Positions 44,823-56,662 are shown, counted from the first letter of the stretch. The stretch is 64,000 bases of DNA from Candidatus Eiseniibacteriota bacterium (GCA_031370785.1 JANMQY010000023.1:1-64000), one strand, 5' to 3'. Made by a program: numbers and translations. The notes: generated by a model not told the origin, from the letters alone.

Positions 44823-45461
44823 CTAGTTGCCTCCGCCCTTCGATTCGCGGCCGGTGACGGTCTGAATGGCACGCACGGCGGCGTCGCGCGCGGCGTCGAT
44901 CTGCGCCTCGGGACCGGACAGATAGAGCCGTCCGTAGGCGCCGAAAAGTGAAGCATCGATGAGCTTGACCCGCGCGGCCTTGAGTGCCTCGTTGGCGGCA
45001 AACGCGACGTAGCCGGCGGGCTCGGTCTCGAAGATGAAGAGAGACTCGCCGGCCAGGAGCATATCGCCGTAGCGGCTCTTGTTGATGACCTGCGCGTGAT
45101 AGGACTCGACTCCCCGGATGATCTGGTCCGAAACCACGCGCGGCTTGACCCGGTCGGATTCTCCGATGCCGAGATGAGCGAGCACCGACTGCCCCGCGAT
45201 CTGCACCTGGCCCTTGTCGCCGTGGTGAAATTCGAGCAGACCGAACGCGCGCTCGACTACCATGATCGCGGGCGTCACCTGGGTGGCCTTGAGCGCCACG
45301 TCGGTGATCCGGTTGATGATCAGGCCGGGCGCGGTCTCGATGAACATCGAGGCGTCGCCGGGCACGGGCAGGAAGCCGCGTGCGGTCGTGCCGATGAACG
45401 CGGCGAGCTGGGACTGCAGACTGTCGAGAAAAACGTAGGTGCGCAGGGTCACGTCTGCCAT
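44823..45461 (-). CDS. Bacterial microcompartment shell protein, circularly permuted tandem-domain BMC-T (CcmP/CsoS1D-like)
   Basis: [64 protein letters not shown]. Confidence 0.9.
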
Positions 45462-45470
45462 AGGCGGCCG

Positions 45471-45499
45471 ACCTTAGCGGCGGCGGTCGCAGGCGTCAA
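45471..45499 (-). promoter_or_regulatory. Sigma-70-type promoter of the BMC-T gene (near-leaderless)
   Basis: Minus strand reads TTGACG-N17-TAAGGT, then 9 nt to ATG 45461, with no SD. Confidence 0.65.
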
Positions 45500-45533
45500 T
45501 GGCGGCGGCCCCGGATGGGTGCCGAGTCCGGCC

Positions 45534-45562
45534 TTGACGCTCCGGGGGCGCCGGAGCATATT
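45534..45562 (+). promoter_or_regulatory. Sigma-70-type promoter of satD-DUF3307
   Basis: TTGACG (45534-39), 17 nt spacer, CATATT (45557-62). The -10 box overlaps palindrome box 1. Confidence 0.6.
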
Positions 45563-45608
45563 CGCCCTCTGAAGGGCGAATCCCTGAATTCGCCCCCTGG
45601 AGGGTGAA
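45561..45608. repeat. Double-palindrome unit 1 (20+8+20 bp) upstream of satD
   Basis: TTCGCCCTCTGAAGGGCGAA-TCCCTGAA-TTCGCCCCCTGGAGGGTGAA, ending 3 nt before GTG 45612. Confidence 0.9.
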
Positions 45609-45611
45609 CGC

Positions 45612-46319
45612 GTGGAACCGCGAATCTGGCAGGTGCTGGTCGCCGATCTCCGATCCTCTCGCCGGATCCCGGACCGGCAGCGCCCGAGAATCGACAAGGC
45701 ACTGCAGCGCGCCGCGGCGCGAGTGGTCCACCGTTACGGAGACCACTTCCGTCTCAAGCCGCAGGTGCTGAAAGGCGACGAGCTGCAGGCGGTGCTGCGC
45801 GCGGATGCGCCGGCGCTCCATGTGGTGACCTATCTCCGGGCCCAGCTCGCGATCGCCGCCGGGATCCGGGTCGAGCTGCGCGCCGGGCTCGGGCGCGGCG
45901 AGATCCGGCGCCTGAGTACGAGCGGCCCGTTCGCCTCGGAGGGAGTCGCGTTTCACCGAGCGCGCACCGCGCTCGAGCAGGCGAAGCAGTCGGGAGGCGA
46001 TCGGCTCACCGCGTGGGTGTCGGGCGATCCGTTCTTCGACGAGCTCGCCGCGACGGTTCTCGCTCTGACCGACGCGTTTGCTTCGCGCTGGACGGTGCCG
46101 CAGTGGGAGGCAATCGCCGGGCGGATCGAAGAGAAGGCGCTGCAGGCGATCGCCCGCGACGCCGGCGTTGGCTTCCAGTCGGTCTCCAAGCGTCTGCGCG
46201 CGGCCTCGTGGAACGAAGTGGGCCAGGGCTATGCGCTGCTCGAGAAGATCGCGACGGTGGTCGGCAGCGGGCCCCGGGCCGGAGCCGCCCGCGCGACCAC
46301 TTCGCCGTCCAGAGGCTGA
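45612..46319 (+). CDS. SatD family protein (nucleotide-cyclase-like palm domain plus C-terminal HTH)
   Basis: VLVADLRSSR, KGDELQ, RAGLGRG, GVAFHRAR, WT..QWE, and HTH LQAIARDAGVGFQSVSKRL. Confidence 0.82.
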   Translation: MEPRIWQVLVADLRSSRRIPDRQRPRIDKALQRAAARVVHRYGDHFRLKPQVLKGDELQAVLRADAPALHVVTYLRAQLAIAAGIRVELRAGLGRGEIRRLSTSGPFASEGVAFHRARTALEQAKQSGGDRLTAWVSGDPFFDELAATVLALTDAFASRWTVPQWEAIAGRIEEKALQAIARDAGVGFQSVSKRLRAASWNEVGQGYALLEKIATVVGSGPRAGAARATTSPSRG

Positions 46320-46348
46320 ATCCGGGATTTCGCCCTCAGGAGGGTGAA
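46301..46348. repeat. Double-palindrome unit 2 (20+8+20 bp) spanning the satD stop and upstream of the DUF3307 gene
   Basis: TTCGCCGTCCAGAGGCTGAA-TCCGGGAT-TTCGCCCTCAGGAGGGTGAA, ending 3 nt before ATG 46352; 37/48 identical to unit 1. Confidence 0.9.
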
Positions 46349-46351
46349 GCG

Positions 46352-47101
46352 ATGAACCTGCCCGCGCCGCTGCTGCTCAAGCTGCTGACCGCCCACCTGG
46401 TCGGGGACTACCTGTTCCAGACCGATTGGGTCGCGGCACGCAAGCGCCGCTGGCCGGTGCTCGCGCTTCACGGGCTCGGGCACGCCGCACTCCTCGCCGG
46501 CGTGGTCCTCACCGAGCCCCGCGGTCCACGACTGATGCTGGCGCTGGCTCTCCTGCTGCTCGCGCACCTCGCGATCGACGCATGGACCAGCCGCAGCCGG
46601 AGCGAGGGCACGCTCACGCTTCTGCTCGATCAGAGCCTGCATGCGGCGACGATCCTCGCGGCGGTCGCCCTTGCACGTCCGTCGGAACTGGCCGGACTCG
46701 GCGACACGATCGGAGTCTGGCTCCAGGACGGCAGGACGTTCGCGGTGATCGCCGGCTTCGTCGCCGCGGTGTGGATGGGAGCGGTCGTGGTCGGACGCTG
46801 GGTGAAGCCGTTCGCGGATCGCATCACCGACGGGACCGTCGAGGGCAGGAGCGGGCTCAAGAACGCGGGGCGCGCGATCGGCATCCTCGAGCGTGGCCTG
46901 ATCTTCATCGCGATCCTCGTCGGTCTCGAGGCCCTGGTCGGATTCGTGGTCGCGGCGAAGGCGCTGCTCCGCCTGCCCGAAGCGCGTGAGCGCGCGAGCC
47001 GCGAGCTGTCCGAGTACTACCTGGTCGGCACGCTGGCCAGCGTGTTCTGGGCGGTGATGGTGAGCCTTCTCACGCGCTGGGCGGTGCGCGGCTCGCCATG
47101 A
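46352..47101 (+). CDS. DUF3307 family membrane protein (SatE-like)
   Basis: AHLVGDYLFQ, HGLGH, HLAID, DQSLH, AGRAIGILER, EYYLVGTL. Confidence 0.85.
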   Translation: MNLPAPLLLKLLTAHLVGDYLFQTDWVAARKRRWPVLALHGLGHAALLAGVVLTEPRGPRLMLALALLLLAHLAIDAWTSRSRSEGTLTLLLDQSLHAATILAAVALARPSELAGLGDTIGVWLQDGRTFAVIAGFVAAVWMGAVVVGRWVKPFADRITDGTVEGRSGLKNAGRAIGILERGLIFIAILVGLEALVGFVVAAKALLRLPEARERASRELSEYYLVGTLASVFWAVMVSLLTRWAVRGSP

Positions 47102-48717
47102 CCGGTCCGGCGCAGGCGGGGGGGCCGACGCCCACGACGCGGCGGGCGCGGCCGGCGCCGACGCTCCCCGCGCTGCTGCTGCTCGGCGCGTTCACGCTGG
47201 TGGTGCGCCTCATGTGTCTGCCCGCGGTGCGCGAGGACAATCTCACTCCCGATGGCGCGCGCTTCCTCAACATCGCGCGCTGCATCACGCGCGGCGAAGG
47301 GTTCTCGACGCCCGAGGCGTGGCCGGCGTGGATGAATCCCGAGCGTCTGCCGGCCCCCGAAACCTTCAAGGAGCCGGGCTACCCGTTCGCGATCGCGGCG
47401 CTCACGCCGCTGGTGCAGGGCCCGTTCCGCGCCGGGCAATGGATTTCGCTGCTCGCCGGGCTGCTGCTGCCGTTCGCCGTGTACGCGCTCGGGCGAAGGC
47501 TCGACCCCGATCCGTGGGTGGGAATCGTCGCGGGCGCATTGAGCGCCGCGAGCCCGGTGCTGATCGCGCAATCAGTGTACGTCATGGCCGAGTCGGCGTT
47601 CGCGCTTGCTCTGACGGTGGCGTTCCTCGCCGCCGCTCCGGCGACCGATTTCGGCGGGAGGAAGGTGTCTCCCGAGGCGCCACCGGCGCTCGATCTGATC
47701 GCTGGCATGCTGTTCGGGCTCGCGTTCCTGGTACGCGCCCAGGCGCTGGTCGCATTTCCCGCGCTTGCGCTGCTGCTGATCGCCGGGCGCACGTGGCGCG
47801 TGCGCCTGGGTCGGGTGGCGCTGGCGGCTGCCGGCGCACTGATCGCCATCACCCCTCTGATCGTGCGCAACCTGCGCCTGTTCGGCGAGCCGCTGCACAG
47901 CGATGTCACGGCGTTCGGACTGTGGCCGTACGTCGATCAGTTCGCGTTCACCCATTTCCTCGAGCGGCCGCCCTCGGCGGCAGGCTATGCGCTCTCCCAC
48001 CTGCCCCAGGTGATGGCTCATGCGCGGAGCACGCTCGCGAGCTTCCTGCGCTTCACGCTGCCACACGACCTCCTCGGGCACGGCGTGCTGATCTTCCCGC
48101 TCGTGATCGGCGCGTGGATCGCGACGCAGCGCGCCCGGGTGTGGAGCTTTGCGCTCCTCTACCTTTCGTGCACCGCGATATTCATCCTGAGTCTCAACTG
48201 GGTGGCGCGCTATTTCGCGAGCGCGGCTCCATTGCTGTGCCTGCTCGCGGCGCTCGGGGCGGTCTGGATCGCGCGACGTGTGGAGCCGGTGCCGCGGCCG
48301 AGAGGATTCAGCCTCGCGCGCATGATGGCGCTCGTGCTCGTGCTGCTGATGGTGGCGATCGCCGTACGGACGGTGCGCAGCGTCGCCCCACCGACCATGC
48401 CCGATCTGGCCGCCGCCCGGGCCGAAGCGCCATTTCTGCGCGCACATCTTGCGCCGGGCGAGGCGGTGATGGCCGAGACCACTTCATACTGGGCGTGGTT
48501 CACCGATCGTCCCGCGGTCCATCCGGTGGTAGCCGACATCCCGACATTCGAATCCGTGATGCGCAGGCTGCGCGTGCACTACGCCGCGCTGCCGACCAGC
48601 CGTCTCGCGGAGTTCGCGGCCCGCTATCCGGGCGGCAAGCTGCCGGACGCGCTGGTTCGCGACCACGAGAACGCGGTCTGCGACATCACCGTGTTCGAAG
48701 TGCGCGTACCGCGCTAG
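47098..48717 (+). CDS. GT-C membrane glycosyltransferase (ArnT/PMT-like)
   Basis: PDGARF loop, EPGYP, MAES, PLIVRN, many TM helices and a periplasmic C-domain; ATGA coupling to the DUF3307 gene. Confidence 0.72.
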   Translation: MTGPAQAGGPTPTTRRARPAPTLPALLLLGAFTLVVRLMCLPAVREDNLTPDGARFLNIARCITRGEGFSTPEAWPAWMNPERLPAPETFKEPGYPFAIAALTPLVQGPFRAGQWISLLAGLLLPFAVYALGRRLDPDPWVGIVAGALSAASPVLIAQSVYVMAESAFALALTVAFLAAAPATDFGGRKVSPEAPPALDLIAGMLFGLAFLVRAQALVAFPALALLLIAGRTWRVRLGRVALAAAGALIAITPLIVRNLRLFGEPLHSDVTAFGLWPYVDQFAFTHFLERPPSAAGYALSHLPQVMAHARSTLASFLRFTLPHDLLGHGVLIFPLVIGAWIATQRARVWSFALLYLSCTAIFILSLNWVARYFASAAPLLCLLAALGAVWIARRVEPVPRPRGFSLARMMALVLVLLMVAIAVRTVRSVAPPTMPDLAAARAEAPFLRAHLAPGEAVMAETTSYWAWFTDRPAVHPVVADIPTFESVMRRLRVHYAALPTSRLAEFAARYPGGKLPDALVRDHENAVCDITVFEVRVPR

Positions 48718-48727
48718 GTACCAGGGG

Positions 48728-50074
48728 TCAACGCAGGACCGGGAAACGTGCGCTGCGTACCGCGTGGGCGGTGCGCAGCACCGCGAAGTAGACACCGGCG
48801 GGAACGTCGCGGCCCGCCTCATCGCGTCCGTCCCACTCGAGCCGCGTGATTCCCGCCGGCAGATCGCGGTCCGCGAGCGCGCGGACGCGCCGGCCGCCGG
48901 GATCGATCATCTCGATCCGCGCATGCGTGGCTGTCGGAGCGCTCACCTCGAGCCGCCAGCGCCGGGCTCCGGGAGAACCGGGCACGAAGCGCAGCTGCAG
49001 GGCGCCCGAGACGTCGTGCGGCGTCGGCCCAACCGCGACGAGGTTGGGCTCGGCGAACCGGAAATGGGGAGGATCGGTCCAGACGATCTCCCGGATCTGG
49101 ATGGTGCCGAGATCGCCTTCCGGGGCGCAGAAGTAGTCGTGCCCCGCGAACCGAAAGATCTCTGGCCCGAACCACTGGTCGGTGTTCTCGGTGGTGATCT
49201 CGCCGCTGAGATTTATCTGGCCGCTCCATGCGGTCGAGTCCGCAGTCGGATCGAGACTGGTTTCGAACTTGATCGCATGCCCCGAATTGGTCGTGTAGAA
49301 CAGGTACCAGAGGCCGTTGTGATCGATCATCGCGGGCGATTCGATCTTGGGATTGTAGTAACCCGTGTTCCACATCGGCTTGAGATCCGTCCAGACCCTG
49401 AAATCGCCGTCGGAGCGCGCGAGCTCGAGCACCATCTGATCCGGGTTCGCGGCCGGGCGCGTGGCGTTGTACATGAGCCAGCTGCCAGGGCTGGTGGGGT
49501 CGGGCATCAGGAACGGATCGCGGAAGTCGCCACCCATGGCGCTCGAAGAATCGCACAGCACCCACGGGACCTGATTGCAGCCGAAGATCGGATCCGCTTC
49601 GCGCGTCCACTCCATGAGATCCGGCGAAGTCGCGAGCCCGACGCGCTGGTACAGGGCGTAGGCCGGAGGTCCGCGGGTGACGCCGGTGTAGAACAGCGCC
49701 CAGTCATTGGCGCGCCGGATCACCTGCGGCGACCACACGTGGAAGTTGTCCCAGGACGACGGCCGGATCGGAAGGACCGGGTCGAGCTCGGTCCAGTTCT
49801 GAAGATCGTTCGAGACCGCATGCCCGAGGTCGCGCTCGGTGGAGTCGTCGAGCACGAAATATCGATGCTTGATATAGAACATGTGGAACAGCTCGCCGTC
49901 GTGGACGATCGTGCATTCCTTGGGGCGAAACGGGAACTGCGGGAGGAAGAAAGCGGCGTGCGCACGGAGCGGGGCGCCGAACAGAAGGGCGACGACAAGC
50001 GGGAGCGCCGCGGTCGCGCCATGGCAGACGCGGCACGCTCGGGGATGGGACGAGGAAGCGGCGGCCGGCGTCAT
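48728..50074 (-). CDS. Secreted five-bladed beta-propeller glycosidase (GH32/GH43-like) with FlgD/T9SS-like C-terminal domain
   Basis: Signal peptide, FHMFY, GHAVS.DL..W Asp-box, WSP, FRDP, ESP, and C-terminal GRRVRAL...WDGRD..G..VPAGVYF. Confidence 0.75.
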   Translation of the reverse strand: MTPAAASSSHPRACRVCHGATAALPLVVALLFGAPLRAHAAFFLPQFPFRPKECTIVHDGELFHMFYIKHRYFVLDDSTERDLGHAVSNDLQNWTELDPVLPIRPSSWDNFHVWSPQVIRRANDWALFYTGVTRGPPAYALYQRVGLATSPDLMEWTREADPIFGCNQVPWVLCDSSSAMGGDFRDPFLMPDPTSPGSWLMYNATRPAANPDQMVLELARSDGDFRVWTDLKPMWNTGYYNPKIESPAMIDHNGLWYLFYTTNSGHAIKFETSLDPTADSTAWSGQINLSGEITTENTDQWFGPEIFRFAGHDYFCAPEGDLGTIQIREIVWTDPPHFRFAEPNLVAVGPTPHDVSGALQLRFVPGSPGARRWRLEVSAPTATHARIEMIDPGGRRVRALADRDLPAGITRLEWDGRDEAGRDVPAGVYFAVLRTAHAVRSARFPVLR

Positions 50075-50192
50075 CAGTCGAGAGCCTCCAGTCGATACGA
50101 ATGACCCTCACTGGGGCAATGAGCATGATCGATGCCCGCTCGAGCGTCAACGTCCGAGTCGCAGCGCCTTCATGCAACTCCTGTGACCCGCT

Positions 50193-51812
50193 CTAGCGGA
50201 CGAAGATGCGAAGCGGGGTAGGGTGCGGGATGCGCGAACTCACCTCCGCGGTGATCTCCCGCGTCGAAGACTCGAGCCGTCGCACCATCGCCGAGTCGGG
50301 CCAGCCGCCGTAGAGCGACTGCCCGGCATCCACGATGAAGACGTGGATCGAAGAGTCGGCCTCGAAGGCCGCGCCACGTTCCGGAGTCCACGCGAGTCCC
50401 GGAGTGCTCCAGTAGAGCCCGGTGCGGAACAGGTAGAAGCCGAGCACCGGCACCTCGGGACCGACGAAGCACACCCGGTTGGGCGGTGCGGCCGCCAGAT
50501 ACGGCGCGAGAGCACTGGTCATCGACCGATAGCCGATCTGGTGATATCGAAGCGGCAGTCGCTGCGCGTCGCGAACGATCGCGGCGCAGATCACGAGAGC
50601 GGCGAGTGTGGCCGCGGTGGCTCCGCTCCAGCGCGGCCTCCATGCGAGCACGAGCTGCGTCCCCGCGAACAGAAGCCATACGCCGAGCCAGAGCACGAAC
50701 GGGAGCGATGGTCCGCCTAGTCGCTGGATGATCCACGGAAACGTGAGGCCAGCGCCGAGTACGAATCCCCTCGGTCCGAGTCGACGGCCTTCGGCAAGAT
50801 CCGAGAAGCCGAGTGCCGCGACCGACACCCACGCGGGCAGCACCACGTAGGCGTATCCACCCGTCTTCACCCGAAAGCACGACAGGATCAGGATCCCGAG
50901 GGCCCAGATCAGGAGCGCCCGCGGCACCGGCTCATTCCGCCGTCGCCACGCCGCGGAAATTCCCTGCGCGACGAACGGGATCAGGAGCAGCAGCGCATGG
51001 CTGAGCACGCCCCAGTAGTAGATGGGAGGCTTGATCCAGTACGAGGCATAGCCCGCGCCCCCCATGCGCGCCGCGAACGCGCCTTGGAAGTAGATCGAGA
51101 GCCAGTGCGCGAGATCGGAGGGGGAGAAGAGCGCGACCGCGAGAAGGTGAAGCGGGGCGATGACGAGCGCGCCGAGGGCCAGCGCGAGCAGCCTTCGCAG
51201 GCGGTCTTCGCGGGCGGAAGCGACGAGGCTGGCCACCGGAATCGCGACCAGCACGACGAGCCAGAGCTTGCACAGAAAAGCCAGCCCGAGCAGGAGTCCC
51301 GCGAAGAACGCATGCCGGCGGCTCGGGCGCTCGCTTGAGACCAGCATCATCGCGCAGGCGCCGAGCGCGGTGAGCGGCAGCTCGGCTCCAACCACCCGTG
51401 ACCCGTCGGTGAACCACGGCAGCGTCATCAAAAGCGCGGCAGCGAGTACTCCGGCTGTAGCGCCCGCGGCCCGCTTCACGAGTATTGCGCAGCACGCCGC
51501 AATGATTGCCGCCGCCACGATGGAAATCCAGCGCAGCGCGATCTCGCTCGCACCCAGGATGCGGATCGAGAGCGCGAGCAGAGCGGGGTAGAGCGGAGGC
51601 TTGTCTCCCGGGACTCCCAGCGGCGAGAGCGAGGGCGAGATCAGATAGCGAGAGGAGGCGAGAATGTTCTTCGCCATGATCCCGTAATAGCCCTCGTCTC
51701 CGCCCACCAGGTCGTTTACGCCCAGCGGCGACCACCAGAGCCAGGCTGAGAGGCCGGCGAGCGTGACCGCGAGCACCATTGCCGGAAACGCGGAGCCAGG
51801 GAGGCGCCTCAT
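50193..51812 (-). CDS. GT-C membrane glycosyltransferase (ArnT-like)
   Basis: GDEGYY, DKPPLY, LR, GLAFLCK, many TM helices. Confidence 0.8.
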   Translation of the reverse strand: MRRLPGSAFPAMVLAVTLAGLSAWLWWSPLGVNDLVGGDEGYYGIMAKNILASSRYLISPSLSPLGVPGDKPPLYPALLALSIRILGASEIALRWISIVAAAIIAACCAILVKRAAGATAGVLAAALLMTLPWFTDGSRVVGAELPLTALGACAMMLVSSERPSRRHAFFAGLLLGLAFLCKLWLVVLVAIPVASLVASAREDRLRRLLALALGALVIAPLHLLAVALFSPSDLAHWLSIYFQGAFAARMGGAGYASYWIKPPIYYWGVLSHALLLLIPFVAQGISAAWRRRNEPVPRALLIWALGILILSCFRVKTGGYAYVVLPAWVSVAALGFSDLAEGRRLGPRGFVLGAGLTFPWIIQRLGGPSLPFVLWLGVWLLFAGTQLVLAWRPRWSGATAATLAALVICAAIVRDAQRLPLRYHQIGYRSMTSALAPYLAAAPPNRVCFVGPEVPVLGFYLFRTGLYWSTPGLAWTPERGAAFEADSSIHVFIVDAGQSLYGGWPDSAMVRRLESSTREITAEVSSRIPHPTPLRIFVR

Positions 51813-51878
51813 CGTCGGATCAGGGGAAGTCGATCGACACGGTCAGGCGCGGCGCTTCGAGAACCGAGGGCATGGCGC

Positions 51879-53831
51879 TCAGCCCAGCTCGCCGATGCGC
51901 TGCCACAGAGATTCCAGCTCGGCGCGGGTACGTTCGTATTCGCCGACCAGTCCCTTCGCCTTCGCGCCGTCGTGGTAGACGTCGGGGTCGGCAAGCTGCG
52001 CCTCGAGCAACTTGACCCGCGCTTCGCGCGACTCGATCTCCTTTTCGAGCGTCGCGATCTGCTTCTCGCGCTTCCGATCGCTCAGGTCCTGCTTCGCGCC
52101 CGGGCTTCCCGCGCCCTTGGCCGCGCGCGGCTTGCCTGCATCGCCCCGGGTCTGCGGCGTGTTCGCCGCCGCGGCCGCGACCGGCACCCGGATCGGCTCG
52201 CCGCCGGGAGCATTGAGCCGTGCGATGCGCGTGCTCTCGTAGTCATCGTAGCCGCCGGGATAGAGCACGACCTTGCCGTCGTTCACCTCGATCACGCGCG
52301 AAGCGACGCGCGCCATGAGCGAACGATCGTGGGTGACCACCACGACCGAGCCGGGGTACTGCTCGAGCGCGTCCTCCAGCACCTCCTTGCCGGCGAGGTC
52401 CAGGTGATGGGTGGGCTCGTCGAGCAGGATCAGGTTGGTGGGCGACATGAGAAGCCGGGCCAGCGCCACGCGCTGGCGCTCTCCGCCCGAGAGCACGCGA
52501 CAGATCTTGAACACGTCGTCGCCCTGGAACAGGAAGTTGCCGAGCAGCGAGCGCAGCCGCGGACGCCACTCGGCCGGAGCGACCTCTTCCAGCGCCTGGA
52601 GCACGGTGAGCGAGGGCTCGAGCGTCTCGGCGGCATGCTGCGCGAAGTAGGCTAGCTTTGTATGAGGCCAGGTCTCGCGCTCGCCTTCGCGCGGCGCGAG
52701 CTGTCCGGCGAGCACGCGCAGCAGCGTGGTCTTGCCCGCGCCGTTGGCGCCGACGATCGCGACCTTGTCGCCACGCTCCAGCTCGACCCGCGCATGTCCG
52801 AAGATGTCGCGCGACCTGTCGTAGCCGAACGCCACGTCCTTGAGCCGCACCAGTGTGCGCCCGGCGTGAGGCGGGTTGGGGAAGTGGAAGCGAATGCGCT
52901 GCGCCTTGCGCGGGATCACCATCCGCTGATCCTTCAGACGGGCGATCTGCTTTCGCTTGCTCTGCGCCTGGGCCGCCTTGGTGTTCTTCGCGCCGAATCG
53001 CTCGACGAAGCGGGAAAGCTGCGCGATCTTGGCGTCGAGCTGCACGTTCTGCGATTCCATCTGCTCGCGACGCAGCTCCTTCTCCTCGAGATAGCGCGTG
53101 AACTTCATCGGATAGTCCGCGAGCTCGCCGCGGTCGAGCTCGCGGATCTCGGTGGCGACCCGGTCGAGGAACACGCGATCGTGTGAGACCACCACCAGCC
53201 CGCCGTGAAAGTCCTCGAGATAGTCCTCGAGCCACTCCATCGCGGGCAGATCCAGATGGTTGGTGGGCTCATCGAGAAACAGCAGGGTGGGATCGGTCAG
53301 CAGCAGCGCCGCCAGCGCGGCGCGCATGCGCCAGCCGCCCGAGAACTCGGCCAGCGGCCGGACCTGATCGACGGTCGAGAAACCGAGGCCCGAGAGCACG
53401 CGCCGCGCCTCCGGCTCGAGCGTGTGCTCGTCGTTCAGCTCGAGATGATGCTGCAGCTCTCCGACCCGCTCGAGCAGGGATTCGAGATGCGGATCATCCT
53501 GGGTGATGCCGCTCAGGCGCTGGTGGAGCGCGTCCAGCTCCTCGCGCATCCCGATCAGGTGCCGATGTGCCTCCATCGCCCGTTCGAGCACGGTGCCGTC
53601 GTAGCGCTCGGCCGCCTCCTGCGGCAGGTAGCCGAGACGCGTGCCGCGGGCGAGGACGCGGGCACCCACCTCGGGCGTGTACTCGCCGAGCATGACCCTG
53701 AGAAGGGTGGTCTTGCCCGCGCCATTGGGGCCGACCAGCGCGATCCGGTCGCCGGGGGACAGTACCCAGTTGAGGTCCGAGAAAAGGACCCGGTCGCCGA
53801 TCGAATACTTGAGGTTCTGAAGCTGGATCAA
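51879..53831 (-). CDS. ABC-F family ATP-binding protein
   Basis: Two ABC domains (GPNGAGKTT/FSGGW/LDEPTNHLD and GANGAGKTT/LSGGE/LDEPTHHLD), no TM helix, C-terminal coiled coil; TTG start after SD CAGGAG. Confidence 0.95.
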   Translation of the reverse strand: MIQLQNLKYSIGDRVLFSDLNWVLSPGDRIALVGPNGAGKTTLLRVMLGEYTPEVGARVLARGTRLGYLPQEAAERYDGTVLERAMEAHRHLIGMREELDALHQRLSGITQDDPHLESLLERVGELQHHLELNDEHTLEPEARRVLSGLGFSTVDQVRPLAEFSGGWRMRAALAALLLTDPTLLFLDEPTNHLDLPAMEWLEDYLEDFHGGLVVVSHDRVFLDRVATEIRELDRGELADYPMKFTRYLEEKELRREQMESQNVQLDAKIAQLSRFVERFGAKNTKAAQAQSKRKQIARLKDQRMVIPRKAQRIRFHFPNPPHAGRTLVRLKDVAFGYDRSRDIFGHARVELERGDKVAIVGANGAGKTTLLRVLAGQLAPREGERETWPHTKLAYFAQHAAETLEPSLTVLQALEEVAPAEWRPRLRSLLGNFLFQGDDVFKICRVLSGGERQRVALARLLMSPTNLILLDEPTHHLDLAGKEVLEDALEQYPGSVVVVTHDRSLMARVASRVIEVNDGKVVLYPGGYDDYESTRIARLNAPGGEPIRVPVAAAAANTPQTRGDAGKPRAAKGAGSPGAKQDLSDRKREKQIATLEKEIESREARVKLLEAQLADPDVYHDGAKAKGLVGEYERTRAELESLWQRIGELG

Positions 53832-53894
53832 GGGTTCTCCTGTGTCCGTCGCGGGCCCTGCCGCATTCGAGCGCAAGCCCTGGCGCGGACAGCG

Positions 53895-53924
53895 TTGACA
53901 CTGCCGAGGGGCGGGCCGGATAAT
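53895..53924 (+). promoter_or_regulatory. Sigma-70-type promoter
   Basis: TTGACA-N18-GATAAT, about 70 nt before TTG 53996. Confidence 0.6.
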
Positions 53925-53995
53925 CCCTCCGGCTCCGCGACCACCTCGTGCCTGTTCCTCATTGCCTTCGCAACCGCCGGGAAAGGACCCCACCC

Positions 53996-56662
53996 TTGCG
54001 CCGAAAGCTTCGCAATGGGTGGTCCATTCTGCTGACCCTGGCTGCGCTGCTGATCGCGCTGCCGGGTCCGGCCCTCGCGGCCTGGATGCAGGCCCCTGCG
54101 CCCTATCGGCCCAAGGACTTCACGATCATCAAGAAGGATGGTCTCTACCATCTCTTCTACATCCGGCGCAATGTGACCCTGCCCATGGCCCAGACCGAGA
54201 GGGACTTCGGGCACGCGGTTTCACCGGACCTGTACAACTGGCAGCAGCTGGCGCCGGTGCTCACGGTTCGCGACTCGGCGTGGGACAACCTGCACGTGTG
54301 GGCGCCCTCGGTGATCGAGAGGGACGGAGTCTACTACCTCTTCTATACCGGGGTCAGCGACGTTCCCGGGCTGTACAACTCCTATCAACGCATGGGCGTC
54401 GCGACCTCGACCGATCTCATGACCTGGAACCGGGTCGACCCGCCGATCTTCAGCTGCGATCAGGTGCCGTGGGCGTTCTGCGATTCGCTCGAGGCCCTCA
54501 ACGCGTTCCGCGATCCGTTCGTGATGCCGGATCCCGCTCAGCCCGGGCGCTTCCTCATGTACTACACGGGCAACCTCGCCCACGATTCGACACGGACCGT
54601 GGTCGGGGTGGCGGGATCGAACGGCGATCTCACCCAGTGGTCCGACATCAAGCCGCTGCTCGCCACGCACCAGAGCTACTCGGGCAACACGCTCACCGAA
54701 TCCCCGCATCTGTTCCAGCACGACGGCACCTGGTACATGCTGTTCACGACCGGCGCGACGCAGCCGCTCTCATACGCGACCAGCCCCGATCCCACCGGCG
54801 ATCCCGCGAGCTGGACCTATCGCGGCCGGCTCGGCACCATGCTCGGAGGGAACACGGGCGCGTGGTTCGCGTCCGAGTACCTGCGTGACGGACTGAACGA
54901 CCTGCTTGCGTTCGTGAACTCGGATCGCGTCCAGATCAACCGCATCGTCTGGCATCCCGATGGAACGTTTCACCTCGTCCAGCCCGATCTGTTCCACGTG
55001 GTGAAAATGAGCTGGGGACAGGACACTGTGCCGAGCGGGCACCCGGTGCAGCTGAAGTTCGTGGCTGCGAATGGCACCGGTCGGGTCGCCTTGCTCGAGG
55101 CCGCCGTGCTCGGCTCCAACGGAGTCGAGACTCCGGCGCCGCTCGATTCGCTCGGCCTGCCCGCATCCTTCACGCTGCCGCGGGACACCTGTTCGTTCAC
55201 GTGGTACGCGCGGCGCTGGCCGAGCACGGGGCTGGAGCCGAGTCGGGTGATCGTGCGCCTGGTCGATCACACCGCACGCACGGTCACGCCGATTGTCGTG
55301 CTGCCCGATACGACCACTCCGCCTCCTTTCCGGGTCACGAGTCTCGACTGGCAGTCGTCGCTGGTGATGCGGTACGAGGACGTCCCGATCATCATCAACG
55401 CGATCGCAGGCGTGGGGCATGTCGCGCCGATCGAGGCATTCACGCTGGATTCGACCGGGACCGAGACCCTCGCGCCGCTCGATTCGCTCGGGCTGCCCGC
55501 CAGCATCGCGCTCACGGCCGACACCACGGTGTTTCACTGGACGGCGCAGATCTATCCGTCGGGGACGCCGCCGCGCGAAATGCGGCTCCGGCTGCGCCTG
55601 GCCGGGGACACGCTCGCGACCGGCGTCATCCGGGTGGTGCCCGACACGATCCCGGTCTTCGACACCTTCCGGGTGGAAAGCATGCAGTGGAGCGCGGACC
55701 AGGCACTCATCGGAACGCAGGTGACGCTGAAGATCGTCTCGCACCTGAGCGGCGGACAGGTGATCACCCTGATCCCCTATGTGCTCGACTCGCTCGACAC
55801 TGAAGTCGAGGTTCGTTCCGATTCGGTCTCGCTGCCTTTCGAAATCTCGCTCGTATCCGACACGACCAGTATCGAGTGGACGGCGCGCATCTACCCGTTC
55901 GACCACCCGAAAATGCGGATGCGGGTCCGTCTCGACTCGGACACTCTGGGGGCGCAGCTGATCACGGTGCGGCGCGACACGACCGTCGCGCCGCCGCCCG
56001 AGACGCTCCAGATCACGCGCTTCGACTGGGCCGCGGACAGTGTCCGGCGCCGCCGGGTTCTGCCGCTCGAGATCGTTGCCCGCGACTGGGGAGGGCGCTT
56101 CGCGCGCCTCGCCGCGTTCACCGTGGACATGGAGGGTACGGCGTCGGCGGCGCCGCTCGAGCCGCTCGGGCTTCCCGACTCGGTCGCGCTGGTCGCGGAC
56201 ACGACGCGCTTCGAGTGGACCGCGGCCACCTGGCCGGACACGACTCAGCTCACACGCCTGCGCCTGCAGGTGGTCGGCGATACACTGATGACCCGAGTGC
56301 TGAGCGTGCTTCCGGACAGCGTCACCGCGGTCGAGCCGCCGCTGACCGGCCCCGAGGGCGGCGCCGATCCGACCGGACCGACCGAAGAGCGCGTGAAGCT
56401 TCGTAGCCAGCGGCACGGAATGTCCTGCTCGATCGGTTTTGTGATCGAGCTCGAGGCGCCGACGCCCGCGCGGCTCGAAGTGTTCGACATCGCGGGACGA
56501 CGCGTCCGCCTGATCGCGAACCGCACGCTCCCCAGGGGGGCGACCGTGCTGCCATGGGATGGCCGCGACGGCTCGGGGCTCGCCGCGGACGCAGGCGTCT
56601 ACTTCGTGCGCCTGACGACTCCGCGCGTGACGCGCCTGATGCGCACCGTGGTGCTGCGCTGA
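53996..56662 (+). CDS. Secreted beta-propeller glycosidase (GH32/GH43-like) with 4 tandem beta-rich repeats and a FlgD/T9SS-like C-terminal domain
   Basis: Signal peptide, RPKDF..YHLFY, GHAVSPDL..W, WAP, FRDP, ESP; repeats; EVFDIAGRRVR...WDGRD..G...AGVYFVRL. Confidence 0.78.
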   Translation: MRRKLRNGWSILLTLAALLIALPGPALAAWMQAPAPYRPKDFTIIKKDGLYHLFYIRRNVTLPMAQTERDFGHAVSPDLYNWQQLAPVLTVRDSAWDNLHVWAPSVIERDGVYYLFYTGVSDVPGLYNSYQRMGVATSTDLMTWNRVDPPIFSCDQVPWAFCDSLEALNAFRDPFVMPDPAQPGRFLMYYTGNLAHDSTRTVVGVAGSNGDLTQWSDIKPLLATHQSYSGNTLTESPHLFQHDGTWYMLFTTGATQPLSYATSPDPTGDPASWTYRGRLGTMLGGNTGAWFASEYLRDGLNDLLAFVNSDRVQINRIVWHPDGTFHLVQPDLFHVVKMSWGQDTVPSGHPVQLKFVAANGTGRVALLEAAVLGSNGVETPAPLDSLGLPASFTLPRDTCSFTWYARRWPSTGLEPSRVIVRLVDHTARTVTPIVVLPDTTTPPPFRVTSLDWQSSLVMRYEDVPIIINAIAGVGHVAPIEAFTLDSTGTETLAPLDSLGLPASIALTADTTVFHWTAQIYPSGTPPREMRLRLRLAGDTLATGVIRVVPDTIPVFDTFRVESMQWSADQALIGTQVTLKIVSHLSGGQVITLIPYVLDSLDTEVEVRSDSVSLPFEISLVSDTTSIEWTARIYPFDHPKMRMRVRLDSDTLGAQLITVRRDTTVAPPPETLQITRFDWAADSVRRRRVLPLEIVARDWGGRFARLAAFTVDMEGTASAAPLEPLGLPDSVALVADTTRFEWTAATWPDTTQLTRLRLQVVGDTLMTRVLSVLPDSVTAVEPPLTGPEGGADPTGPTEERVKLRSQRHGMSCSIGFVIELEAPTPARLEVFDIAGRRVRLIANRTLPRGATVLPWDGRDGSGLAADAGVYFVRLTTPRVTRLMRTVVLR
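54992..56320 (+). repeat. Four tandem 112-113-aa protein repeats
   Basis: Units start at 54992, 55328, 55667 and 56006 and share F-x-V-x2-(M/L)-x-W ... PLDSLGLP-x-S-x2-L-x2-DT-x2-F-x-W-x-A-x2-(W/Y)P ... PDT. Confidence 0.85.

Follow-up and report, generated by a model that had tools for sequence, protein, structure and literature searches.

The SatD and SatE families, whose names are said to come from the sat operon paper of Kremer in 2001, have been catalogued as a gene pair. The locus described here lies in a 64,000-nucleotide stretch of a Candidatus Eiseniibacteriota genome (JANMQY010000023.1:1-64000, hereafter the window) and encodes the same Pfam families in the same gene order as the Streptococcus mutans sat operon, SatD (PF16264) followed by SatE (DUF3307, PF11750). 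Compared to that operon, the window pair stands alone, away from ffh, and possesses two putative operator pairs. In the accessible text of three reports, SatD is labelled acid tolerance and nothing more (PMC10326533, PMC13492114, PMC12077213). Among the sources covered by our literature search, which include few subscription papers, we found none on SatD operators, DNA binding, cyclase activity, SatE toxicity or SatD as a regulator. To the catalogued pair, the locus adds paired units at the promoter and at the gene junction, a tree-tested code between recognition helix and half-site, and antitoxin-like genetics. The feature is real, and our best reading of it is a self-repressing, toxin-antitoxin-like operon with a cyclase-fold regulator.

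Type II toxin-antitoxin systems, such as hipBA of Escherichia coli, are autorepressed through multiple operators. Similar to hipBA, the window operon is a tight two-gene unit in which an antitoxin-like helix-turn-helix (HTH) gene comes first and several palindromes lie over the promoter; these palindromes are matched to the HTH by comparative evidence, and their binding is predicted. It differs from hipBA in that SatD has 235 residues with a cyclase-like palm, the partner is a polytopic membrane protein, and an extra operator pair lies between the genes. Class III nucleotidyl cyclases (Rv1900c, Ma1120, bPAC and Pycsar PycC) form their active sites between two palms of a head-to-tail dimer, using base-selecting residues and Asn/Arg transition-state residues. 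SatD has their fold and their D-x-x-x-S and GD motifs, but it is fused to an HTH and its modelled dimer is formed via other helices. The CdaR/PucR-type regulators (GGDEF-like plus HTH), such as Rv2242, also have a palm-like domain followed by an HTH, with a full-length Foldseek E-value of 7.6e-5. However, the superposition is poor (TM 0.28, RMSD 14.7), SatD lacks an N-terminal sensor and keeps both Asp residues, and the PucR HTH architecture is missing from the top 25 Pfam families found for 125 SatD homologues. In the Panoptes pair OptS (mCpol)-OptE, a palm with two Asp residues at catalytic positions likewise sits beside a membrane protein, and loss of the first gene is harmful according to the accessible text (PMC12657218). 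Compared to Panoptes, SatD has an HTH and putative operators, and SatE, with about six hydrophobic segments, does not match OptE-type models.

Overall organization of the satD-satE locus

The locus and its flanking genes comprise the following features:

44823..45461, minus strand, BMC-domain gene in divergent orientation, in this clade usually the neighbour on the left, which occurs without satD too
45534..45562, plus strand, sigma-70-type promoter of satD (TTGACG-17-CATATT) from a promoter search, with TTGAC kept in the clade
45561..45580, no strand, box 1, putative operator overlapping the promoter -10 and the expected transcription start
45589..45608, no strand, box 2, putative operator holding the satD Shine-Dalgarno GGAGGG (45599-45604)
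45612..46319, plus strand, satD, 235 residues, with a class III cyclase-like palm (about 1-159), dimer helices and a C-terminal HTH (about 162-197)
46301..46320, no strand, box 3, putative operator within the 3' end of satD, including its stop codon (46317-46319)
46329..46348, no strand, box 4, putative operator holding the satE Shine-Dalgarno (46339-46344)
46352..47101, plus strand, satE (DUF3307), 249 residues, modelled as an all-helical membrane protein with an N-domain and a C-domain
47098..48717, plus strand, PMT_2 glycosyltransferase overlapping the satE stop with its start, which flanks the module and is not a conserved part of it

The first-pass annotation had described four 20-bp palindromic boxes in two 20-8-20 units, and we reproduced their coordinates: the units lie 740 nt apart and are identical at 37 of 48 positions (77%). 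They form both the top direct and the top inverted repeat of 45000-47600. Each box is self-complementary at 12-16 of its 20 positions, and the boxes are identical to one another at 14-18 of 20. As had also been described, each unit ends 3 nt upstream of a start codon (GTG at 45612 and ATG at 46352) with GGAGGG in its second box, and the satD promoter overlaps box 1, the overlap being the first 2 nt of the box. This promoter is the sole promoter-like site in 45300-47300 (shuffle mean 0.1), and a search 5' of unit 2 found no -35 element. Because 28 bp correspond to about 2.7 helical turns, the paired boxes do not lie on the same face of the DNA.

Among named organisms, the closest relatives of the window SatD and SatE proteins belong to Candidatus Eisenbacteria. 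Of 24 same-family genomes, 22 keep a lone BMC-domain gene, and no other microcompartment genes were found among the neighbours examined. In one same-genus genome (G001, locus L096), the BMC gene is followed directly by the glycosyltransferase, with a promoter-like site of its own. Downstream of satE, the stretch 47098-56662 of the window encodes two PMT_2 glycosyltransferases, two GH43/GH32 proteins with FlgD-like tails and an ABC-F protein; the first glycosyltransferase is coupled to the stop codon of satE and might be controlled by SatD. In two of three expression runs, all from one study and with small shares, the whole stretch of a relative appeared as a single flat contig that may stem from DNA; start site and level are not readable from it.

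The boxes are specific to the locus and conserved with satD

Scored across the 3.44-Mb genome with a matrix built from the same boxes, the four boxes reach 26.6-30.0 bits, compared to 17.5 for the next site, and no further box pair was found. With a matrix built from unit 1 of the clade, the window's two boxes included, the four boxes are still the top sites and the only strong pairs genome-wide. The outcomes that the first-pass annotation had named as counting against it include a genome-wide REP-like repeat and palindromes missing from homologous loci. The four boxes are confined to one locus in the genome, which rules out a REP/BIME-like repeat, and homologous loci keep the palindromes.

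We sampled 30 distinct close loci, namely the window and relatives with SatD identity of 43-78%, leaving out the near duplicates L017 and L041. Of the 28 clade loci with upstream DNA, 27 have unit 1, and TTGAC lies 24-28 nt 5' of box 1 in all 27. Unit 2 was recovered at 19 of 29 loci and has decayed at the other 10; 22 loci keep one strong box or more, and TTGAC precedes unit 2 in none. The consensus of the clade boxes is TTC[AG][AC]CC-N6-GG[GT][TC]GAA, in which the arms are kept and the centre and spacer are variable. Relative to the satD stop, unit 2 begins anywhere between 53 nt upstream and 17 nt downstream, and it occurs in two frames; this variation in position and frame indicates a constraint on the DNA and not on the tail of the SatD protein. 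The 17 unit-to-unit distances (700-807 bp) are not helically phased (Rayleigh p 0.26-0.94), a test that is uninformative at about 700 bp, and they give no support for the DNA looping that had been suggested.

In a motif-free test, a locus had to beat all 40 of its dinucleotide shuffles. The test was passed at 39 of 60 satD upstream regions (close 25/29, distant 14/31) and at 23 of 60 satD-satE junctions (close 19/31, distant 4/29), related loci not being independent; control gene starts passed in 0 of 150 and 2 of 100 cases. Some passes were GC-rich or micro-repeat sequences and not boxes (upstream L018, L033 and L056; junction L025), and the true counts are slightly lower. Eleven later loci, found via SatE, passed upstream in seven cases and at the junction in seven, indicating that the junction unit is not limited to the clade of the window. 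Moreover, among 21 BMC-gene loci with inspectable DNA, boxes occur in 5 of 5 with satD and in 0 of 16 without it. Distant SatD loci, haloarchaea included, also carry tandem palindromes. On haloarchaeal plasmids, satD (L079 and L080) has two separate box pairs, both on its upstream side, in a region about 140 nt from the gene. An apparent third unit in L048 was dropped, as it lies on a fold-back chimeric contig.

The distribution of satD is patchy, with 23 of 151 genomes of the phylum carrying it; it is found on plasmids as well, and satD and satE were gained and lost together in the genomes compared. One Fusobacterium record of 2.1 Mb (L092) carries the label plasmid but is likely to be a chromosome. 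Neither viral contigs searched with the alignment of close homologues nor phage records yielded a phage-borne satD. Four viral contigs (L075:2501-2547, L076:2501-2547, L077:2501-2547 and L078:1032-1078) contain an exact intergenic double TCAACC-N6-GGTTGA with a SatD-like period, and no satD in their fetched DNA. These may be operators of phage repressors with a like geometry, or they may be bound by a SatD of the host.

Another conceivable origin of the repeats is a mobile satD cassette, whose ends of recombination or insertion they would mark, or a REP-like family. In its favour, the units lie on either side of satD as direct and inverted repeats, and in a same-genus genome the BMC gene directly adjoins the glycosyltransferase. 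Nevertheless, we regard such an origin as extremely improbable: the boxes are single-locus in the genome, empty sites lack any box, satD and satE come and go together, no recombinase was found among the neighbours examined, and no joints were found in the contigs.

Half-sites co-vary with the HTH recognition helix

A co-variation between half-site and HTH recognition helix had been predicted, and it is borne out by pairings that recur in non-sister clades. We placed 41 SatD proteins on a tree from which the HTH columns had been removed; it was built by a quick method and has several long branches, and some half-site labels were assigned by eye. Helices of the Gln189 type (Q-[AS]-V-x-K) pair with CAACC/CACCC in three separate clades (the window clade, L049-051 and L091), S/A-T-x-x-K helices with TAGCC in two (L052-058 and the Vibrionaceae L093-094), and S-x-V-S-E-S helices with TCGCC/TCGGT in two (L059-061 and haloarchaea). 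In addition, loci without Lys193 tend to have AGC in place of ACC (L037, L162 and L144), and newly found loci with HQNV[ST]KR and STVSR helices had boxes as expected. L008 is an exception to the pairing. Judged from these sequence comparisons, the four boxes are very probably SatD operators.

Alternatively, the boxes might act not as operators but at the RNA level, as hairpins by which the Shine-Dalgarno is masked or exposed in translational coupling. Each unit indeed places one Shine-Dalgarno inside a box, and the units fold with z of -4.5 (unit 1) and -2.4 (unit 2), although tandem palindromes of any kind fold. Inner half-sites show 20 G-U against 8 A-C mismatches; within boxes the counts are 26 against 20 and 18 against 16, with no G-U bias. 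Half-site covariation reaches a z of up to 5.6 for RNA-pairable combinations, the outer pairing of unit 1 being strongest, compared to up to 3.6 for non-pairable ones. However, the outer pairing of unit 2 has a z of -0.8, and co-variation is seen also between direct repeats that cannot pair. A protein complex with two-fold symmetry on the 48 bp accounts for the outer-pairing signal more simply. Also against hairpins, transcription is expected to start downstream of the left arm of box 1, the arrays of distant loci lie well upstream of the Shine-Dalgarno, the box sequence tracks the HTH helix, and the Rfam search gave no match near threshold, only a sub-threshold chance match. Taken together, we consider the hairpin reading very unlikely compared to SatD operators.

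Structure of SatD

The assignment of satD by the first-pass annotation agrees with the profile of PF16264 (E-value 8.5e-13, 48.9 bits against a cut-off of 29), a family of considerable size in that 4375 clusters at 50% identity match the SatD profile. The proposed cyclase-like palm with Asp motifs and an HTH was also recovered, with Asp12 and Asp56 invariant. In a model with a pLDDT of 93, residues 1-159 resemble class III cyclases, GTP cyclohydrolase III, Cas10 palms and GGDEF domains. Structural comparison with a class III cyclase gave a Foldseek E-value of 1.5e-5 and a VIA Z of 11.5, with an RMSD of 3.2 over 143 aligned residues, and the D-x-x-x-S and GD motifs of SatD align with the class III Asp motifs. 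The SatD profile aligns with that of a class III cyclase at a hhalign probability of 74% (E-value 2.8e-5), the alignment stopping at residue 107, and its last third matches HTH proteins. Asp12, Ser16, Asp56 and Gly111 are invariant in 125 of 125 diverse homologues, while His115 and Arg118, found in 80 and 105 of the 125, lie on a helix matching that of the cyclases. The homologues L056 and L058 have a Gln/Glu-rich insertion of 40-60 residues following the palm.

The homodimer model of SatD scores 0.53, compared to 0.00 for the best control; the runs agree on at least 95% of contacts, and the pLDDT is at least 88. The mark it passes is passed by 20 of 30 solved homodimers and by 1 of 23 single chains. 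The modelled interface consists of residues 144-156 and 199-209, with the palm strands outside it, and a shared active site is not built. The palms are thus left free in this dimer, and since class III active sites form between two palms, contacts of this kind could arise between neighbouring dimers bound to DNA.

SatE and its pairing with SatD

The assignment of satE to DUF3307 likewise agrees with its profile (PF11750, E-value 4.5e-15, 56.2 bits against a cut-off of 23). SatE is modelled as two helical halves, and a window scan gives six hydrophobic segments. In the N-domain, His15, Asp19, His40, His72, Asp76, Asp93 and His97 are each kept in 114-116 of 116 homologues; the marked residues of the C-domain are Glu180, Arg181, Lys203, Arg207, Glu221 and Tyr222. 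The His/Asp motifs had been read as suggesting a metal-dependent hydrolase or effector. The conserved His/Asp cluster holds, but the second His of the HxxxH motif (His44) is present in just 55 of 116 homologues, and the fold search gave no match: none at a Foldseek E-value of 0.001 or below, and a best VIA Z of 8.7 to generic helical bundles only. A search of SatE in the Atlas returned DUF3307 alone, and six proteins searched against NCBIfam and PADLOC gave no match.

The C-terminal half of SatE is the constant partner of SatD, present at 42 of 46 satD loci compared to 33 of 46 for the His-rich DUF3307 half. It is the sole partner part at 10 of the 46, which makes the His-motif domain the dispensable half of the partner. 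This C-terminal half (46730-47098 of the window) lies outside every Pfam model; the His-rich half was found alone without satD in three of three such loci. Conversely, of 43 distinct loci encoding the SatE C-domain, 38 have satD upstream. The remaining five comprise three at contig edges, one with a weak partial match and one orphan, in genome G425. The orphan satE (L166:1492-2178) is full-length and intact, with a TTGACA-17-TATGAT promoter of its own, and satD was not found across the G425 genome, for which completeness is not given. It is a counter-example to a strict toxicity of SatE.

Transposon genetics and a model for SatD function

Transposon data are available for streptococci, whose genes are tied to those of the window by family name only. 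According to the accessible text of an S. pyogenes pangenome study, satD is the single essential accessory gene and occurs in 178 of 249 genomes; it is essential in 8 of 8 data sets, and its only operon partner, also accessory, is non-essential in 8 of 8 (PMC11323703). A second report, as far as its accessible part goes, gives satD as essential, the overlapping satE as non-essential and the next gene, gid, as non-essential or unclear (PMC4440532). In the available portion of a third, satD is essential and satE dispensable in S. agalactiae, the satD orthologue and satE are both non-essential in S. equi, and repressors and antitoxins are noted to score as essential, with eqbA as an example of a de-repressed operon (PMC5452409). 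For S. mutans, the accessible data give ratios of 0.41/0.21/0.21 for satD compared to 1.46/1.31/1.66 for satE; satC and satE have ratios above 1.2 in vitro, and satD is judged against 0.001 for dnaA (PMC5806208).

An essential satD with a dispensable satE is the signature of an antitoxin or repressor, and is seen in some streptococci. As in hipBA-like operons, the first gene is essential and the second dispensable in S. pyogenes and S. agalactiae; S. mutans follows partially and S. equi does not. An insertion in the first operon gene could silence satE too, and the essentiality of satD therefore needs read-through or an effect at the protein level. The first-pass annotation had missed this public pattern, while its palindromes, HTH link and cyclase-like palm hold.

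The conservation, specificity and co-variation of the boxes, the fold of SatD and the gene pairing are the basis of our best explanation, in which SatD binds the boxes as operators, represses its own operon and restrains a harmful SatE; as a whole, we consider it reasonably likely. With high confidence, a SatD dimer would bind each 20-bp palindrome via its HTHs, two dimers occupying each pair with its 28-bp period. From its position, unit 1 would probably block the satD-satE promoter, which amounts to autorepression. The promoter-less unit 2 would probably act as a second brake at the satD-satE junction, as a roadblock or auxiliary operator, lowering satE relative to satD. The purpose would be, on a balance of evidence that tips only slightly this way, to restrain SatE, a membrane protein harmful when unchecked, with SatD resembling the antitoxin and repressor of a toxin-antitoxin-like pair. 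A further step is tentative: the palm may bind Mg-NTP via Asp12 and Asp56, and palm-palm contacts of neighbouring dimers, whose palms are free in the model, might fix the 28-29-bp period and render repression nucleotide-dependent.

A more ordinary account is that SatD represses the operon as a regulator sensing an NTP or metabolite, that SatE is a benign membrane enzyme or transporter, and that the Tn-seq essentiality reflects a mild cost of overexpression or is peculiar to some streptococci. This is the reading expected from the intact orphan satE of G425, the stable BMC-gene synteny in the clade and the missing PADLOC match. It also fits the non-essential satD of S. equi, the partial depletion of satD in S. 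mutans and the eqbA example, in which de-repression can make a plain repressor look essential, as given in the accessible text of these reports (PMC5452409, PMC5806208). However, satD is the only essential accessory gene of the S. pyogenes pangenome, at least in the accessible text (PMC11323703), its distribution is patchy (23/151 genomes of the phylum) and extends to plasmids, and satE has a putative operator pair of its own. On these grounds, a benign operon is a less probable alternative, though one to be taken seriously.

Another alternative is inverse signalling similar to Panoptes, in which SatD, as an active cyclase, constantly makes a nucleotide that keeps SatE inactive, and loss of the signal, for instance to a phage sponge, frees SatE and lifts repression. 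It overlaps with the steps of our best explanation on SatE restraint and a nucleotide-dependent palm. Both metal-binding Asp residues are invariant (125/125), a palm enzyme sits beside a membrane protein, and a protein-level antidote accounts for the essentiality of satD without read-through. OptE, according to the accessible text, is toxic alone and rescued only by catalytically active OptS (PMC12657218). Nevertheless, SatD is nearer to class III cyclases (hhalign 74%) than to mCpol (1.8%, to one mCpol), and mCpol PF18182 has no match in the window SatD, nor in the SatD-bearing genomes G158 and G172. Moreover, the modelled SatD dimer has no shared active site, SatE is not a 2TM effector, PADLOC gave no match, and the clade shows no defence-island context. 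We therefore hold inverse signalling to be unlikely.

Returning to SatD as operator-bound repressor, an extension that we regard as speculative and rather improbable is that SatD is a one-component switch, a cyclase-fold antitoxin-repressor whose DNA-bound dimers are joined palm to palm in an array with a 28-29-bp period. Active or nucleotide-bridged sites would then arise on the operator and nowhere else, and a single nucleotide signal would govern transcription as well as the activity of SatE as a membrane toxin. If true, this would explain satD as the lone essential accessory gene of S. pyogenes, in a family that spans bacteria and haloarchaea.

Implications for the SatD family

The boxes give SatD, annotated only as 'acid tolerance', a concrete predicted DNA target and a readable code from helix to half-site. 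The Tn-seq pattern bears on an open observation in streptococcal genetics and raises the question whether the loss of satE makes satD dispensable. If the palm is active or binds a ligand, SatD would be a case in which a cyclase-fold domain serves directly as a repressor switch.
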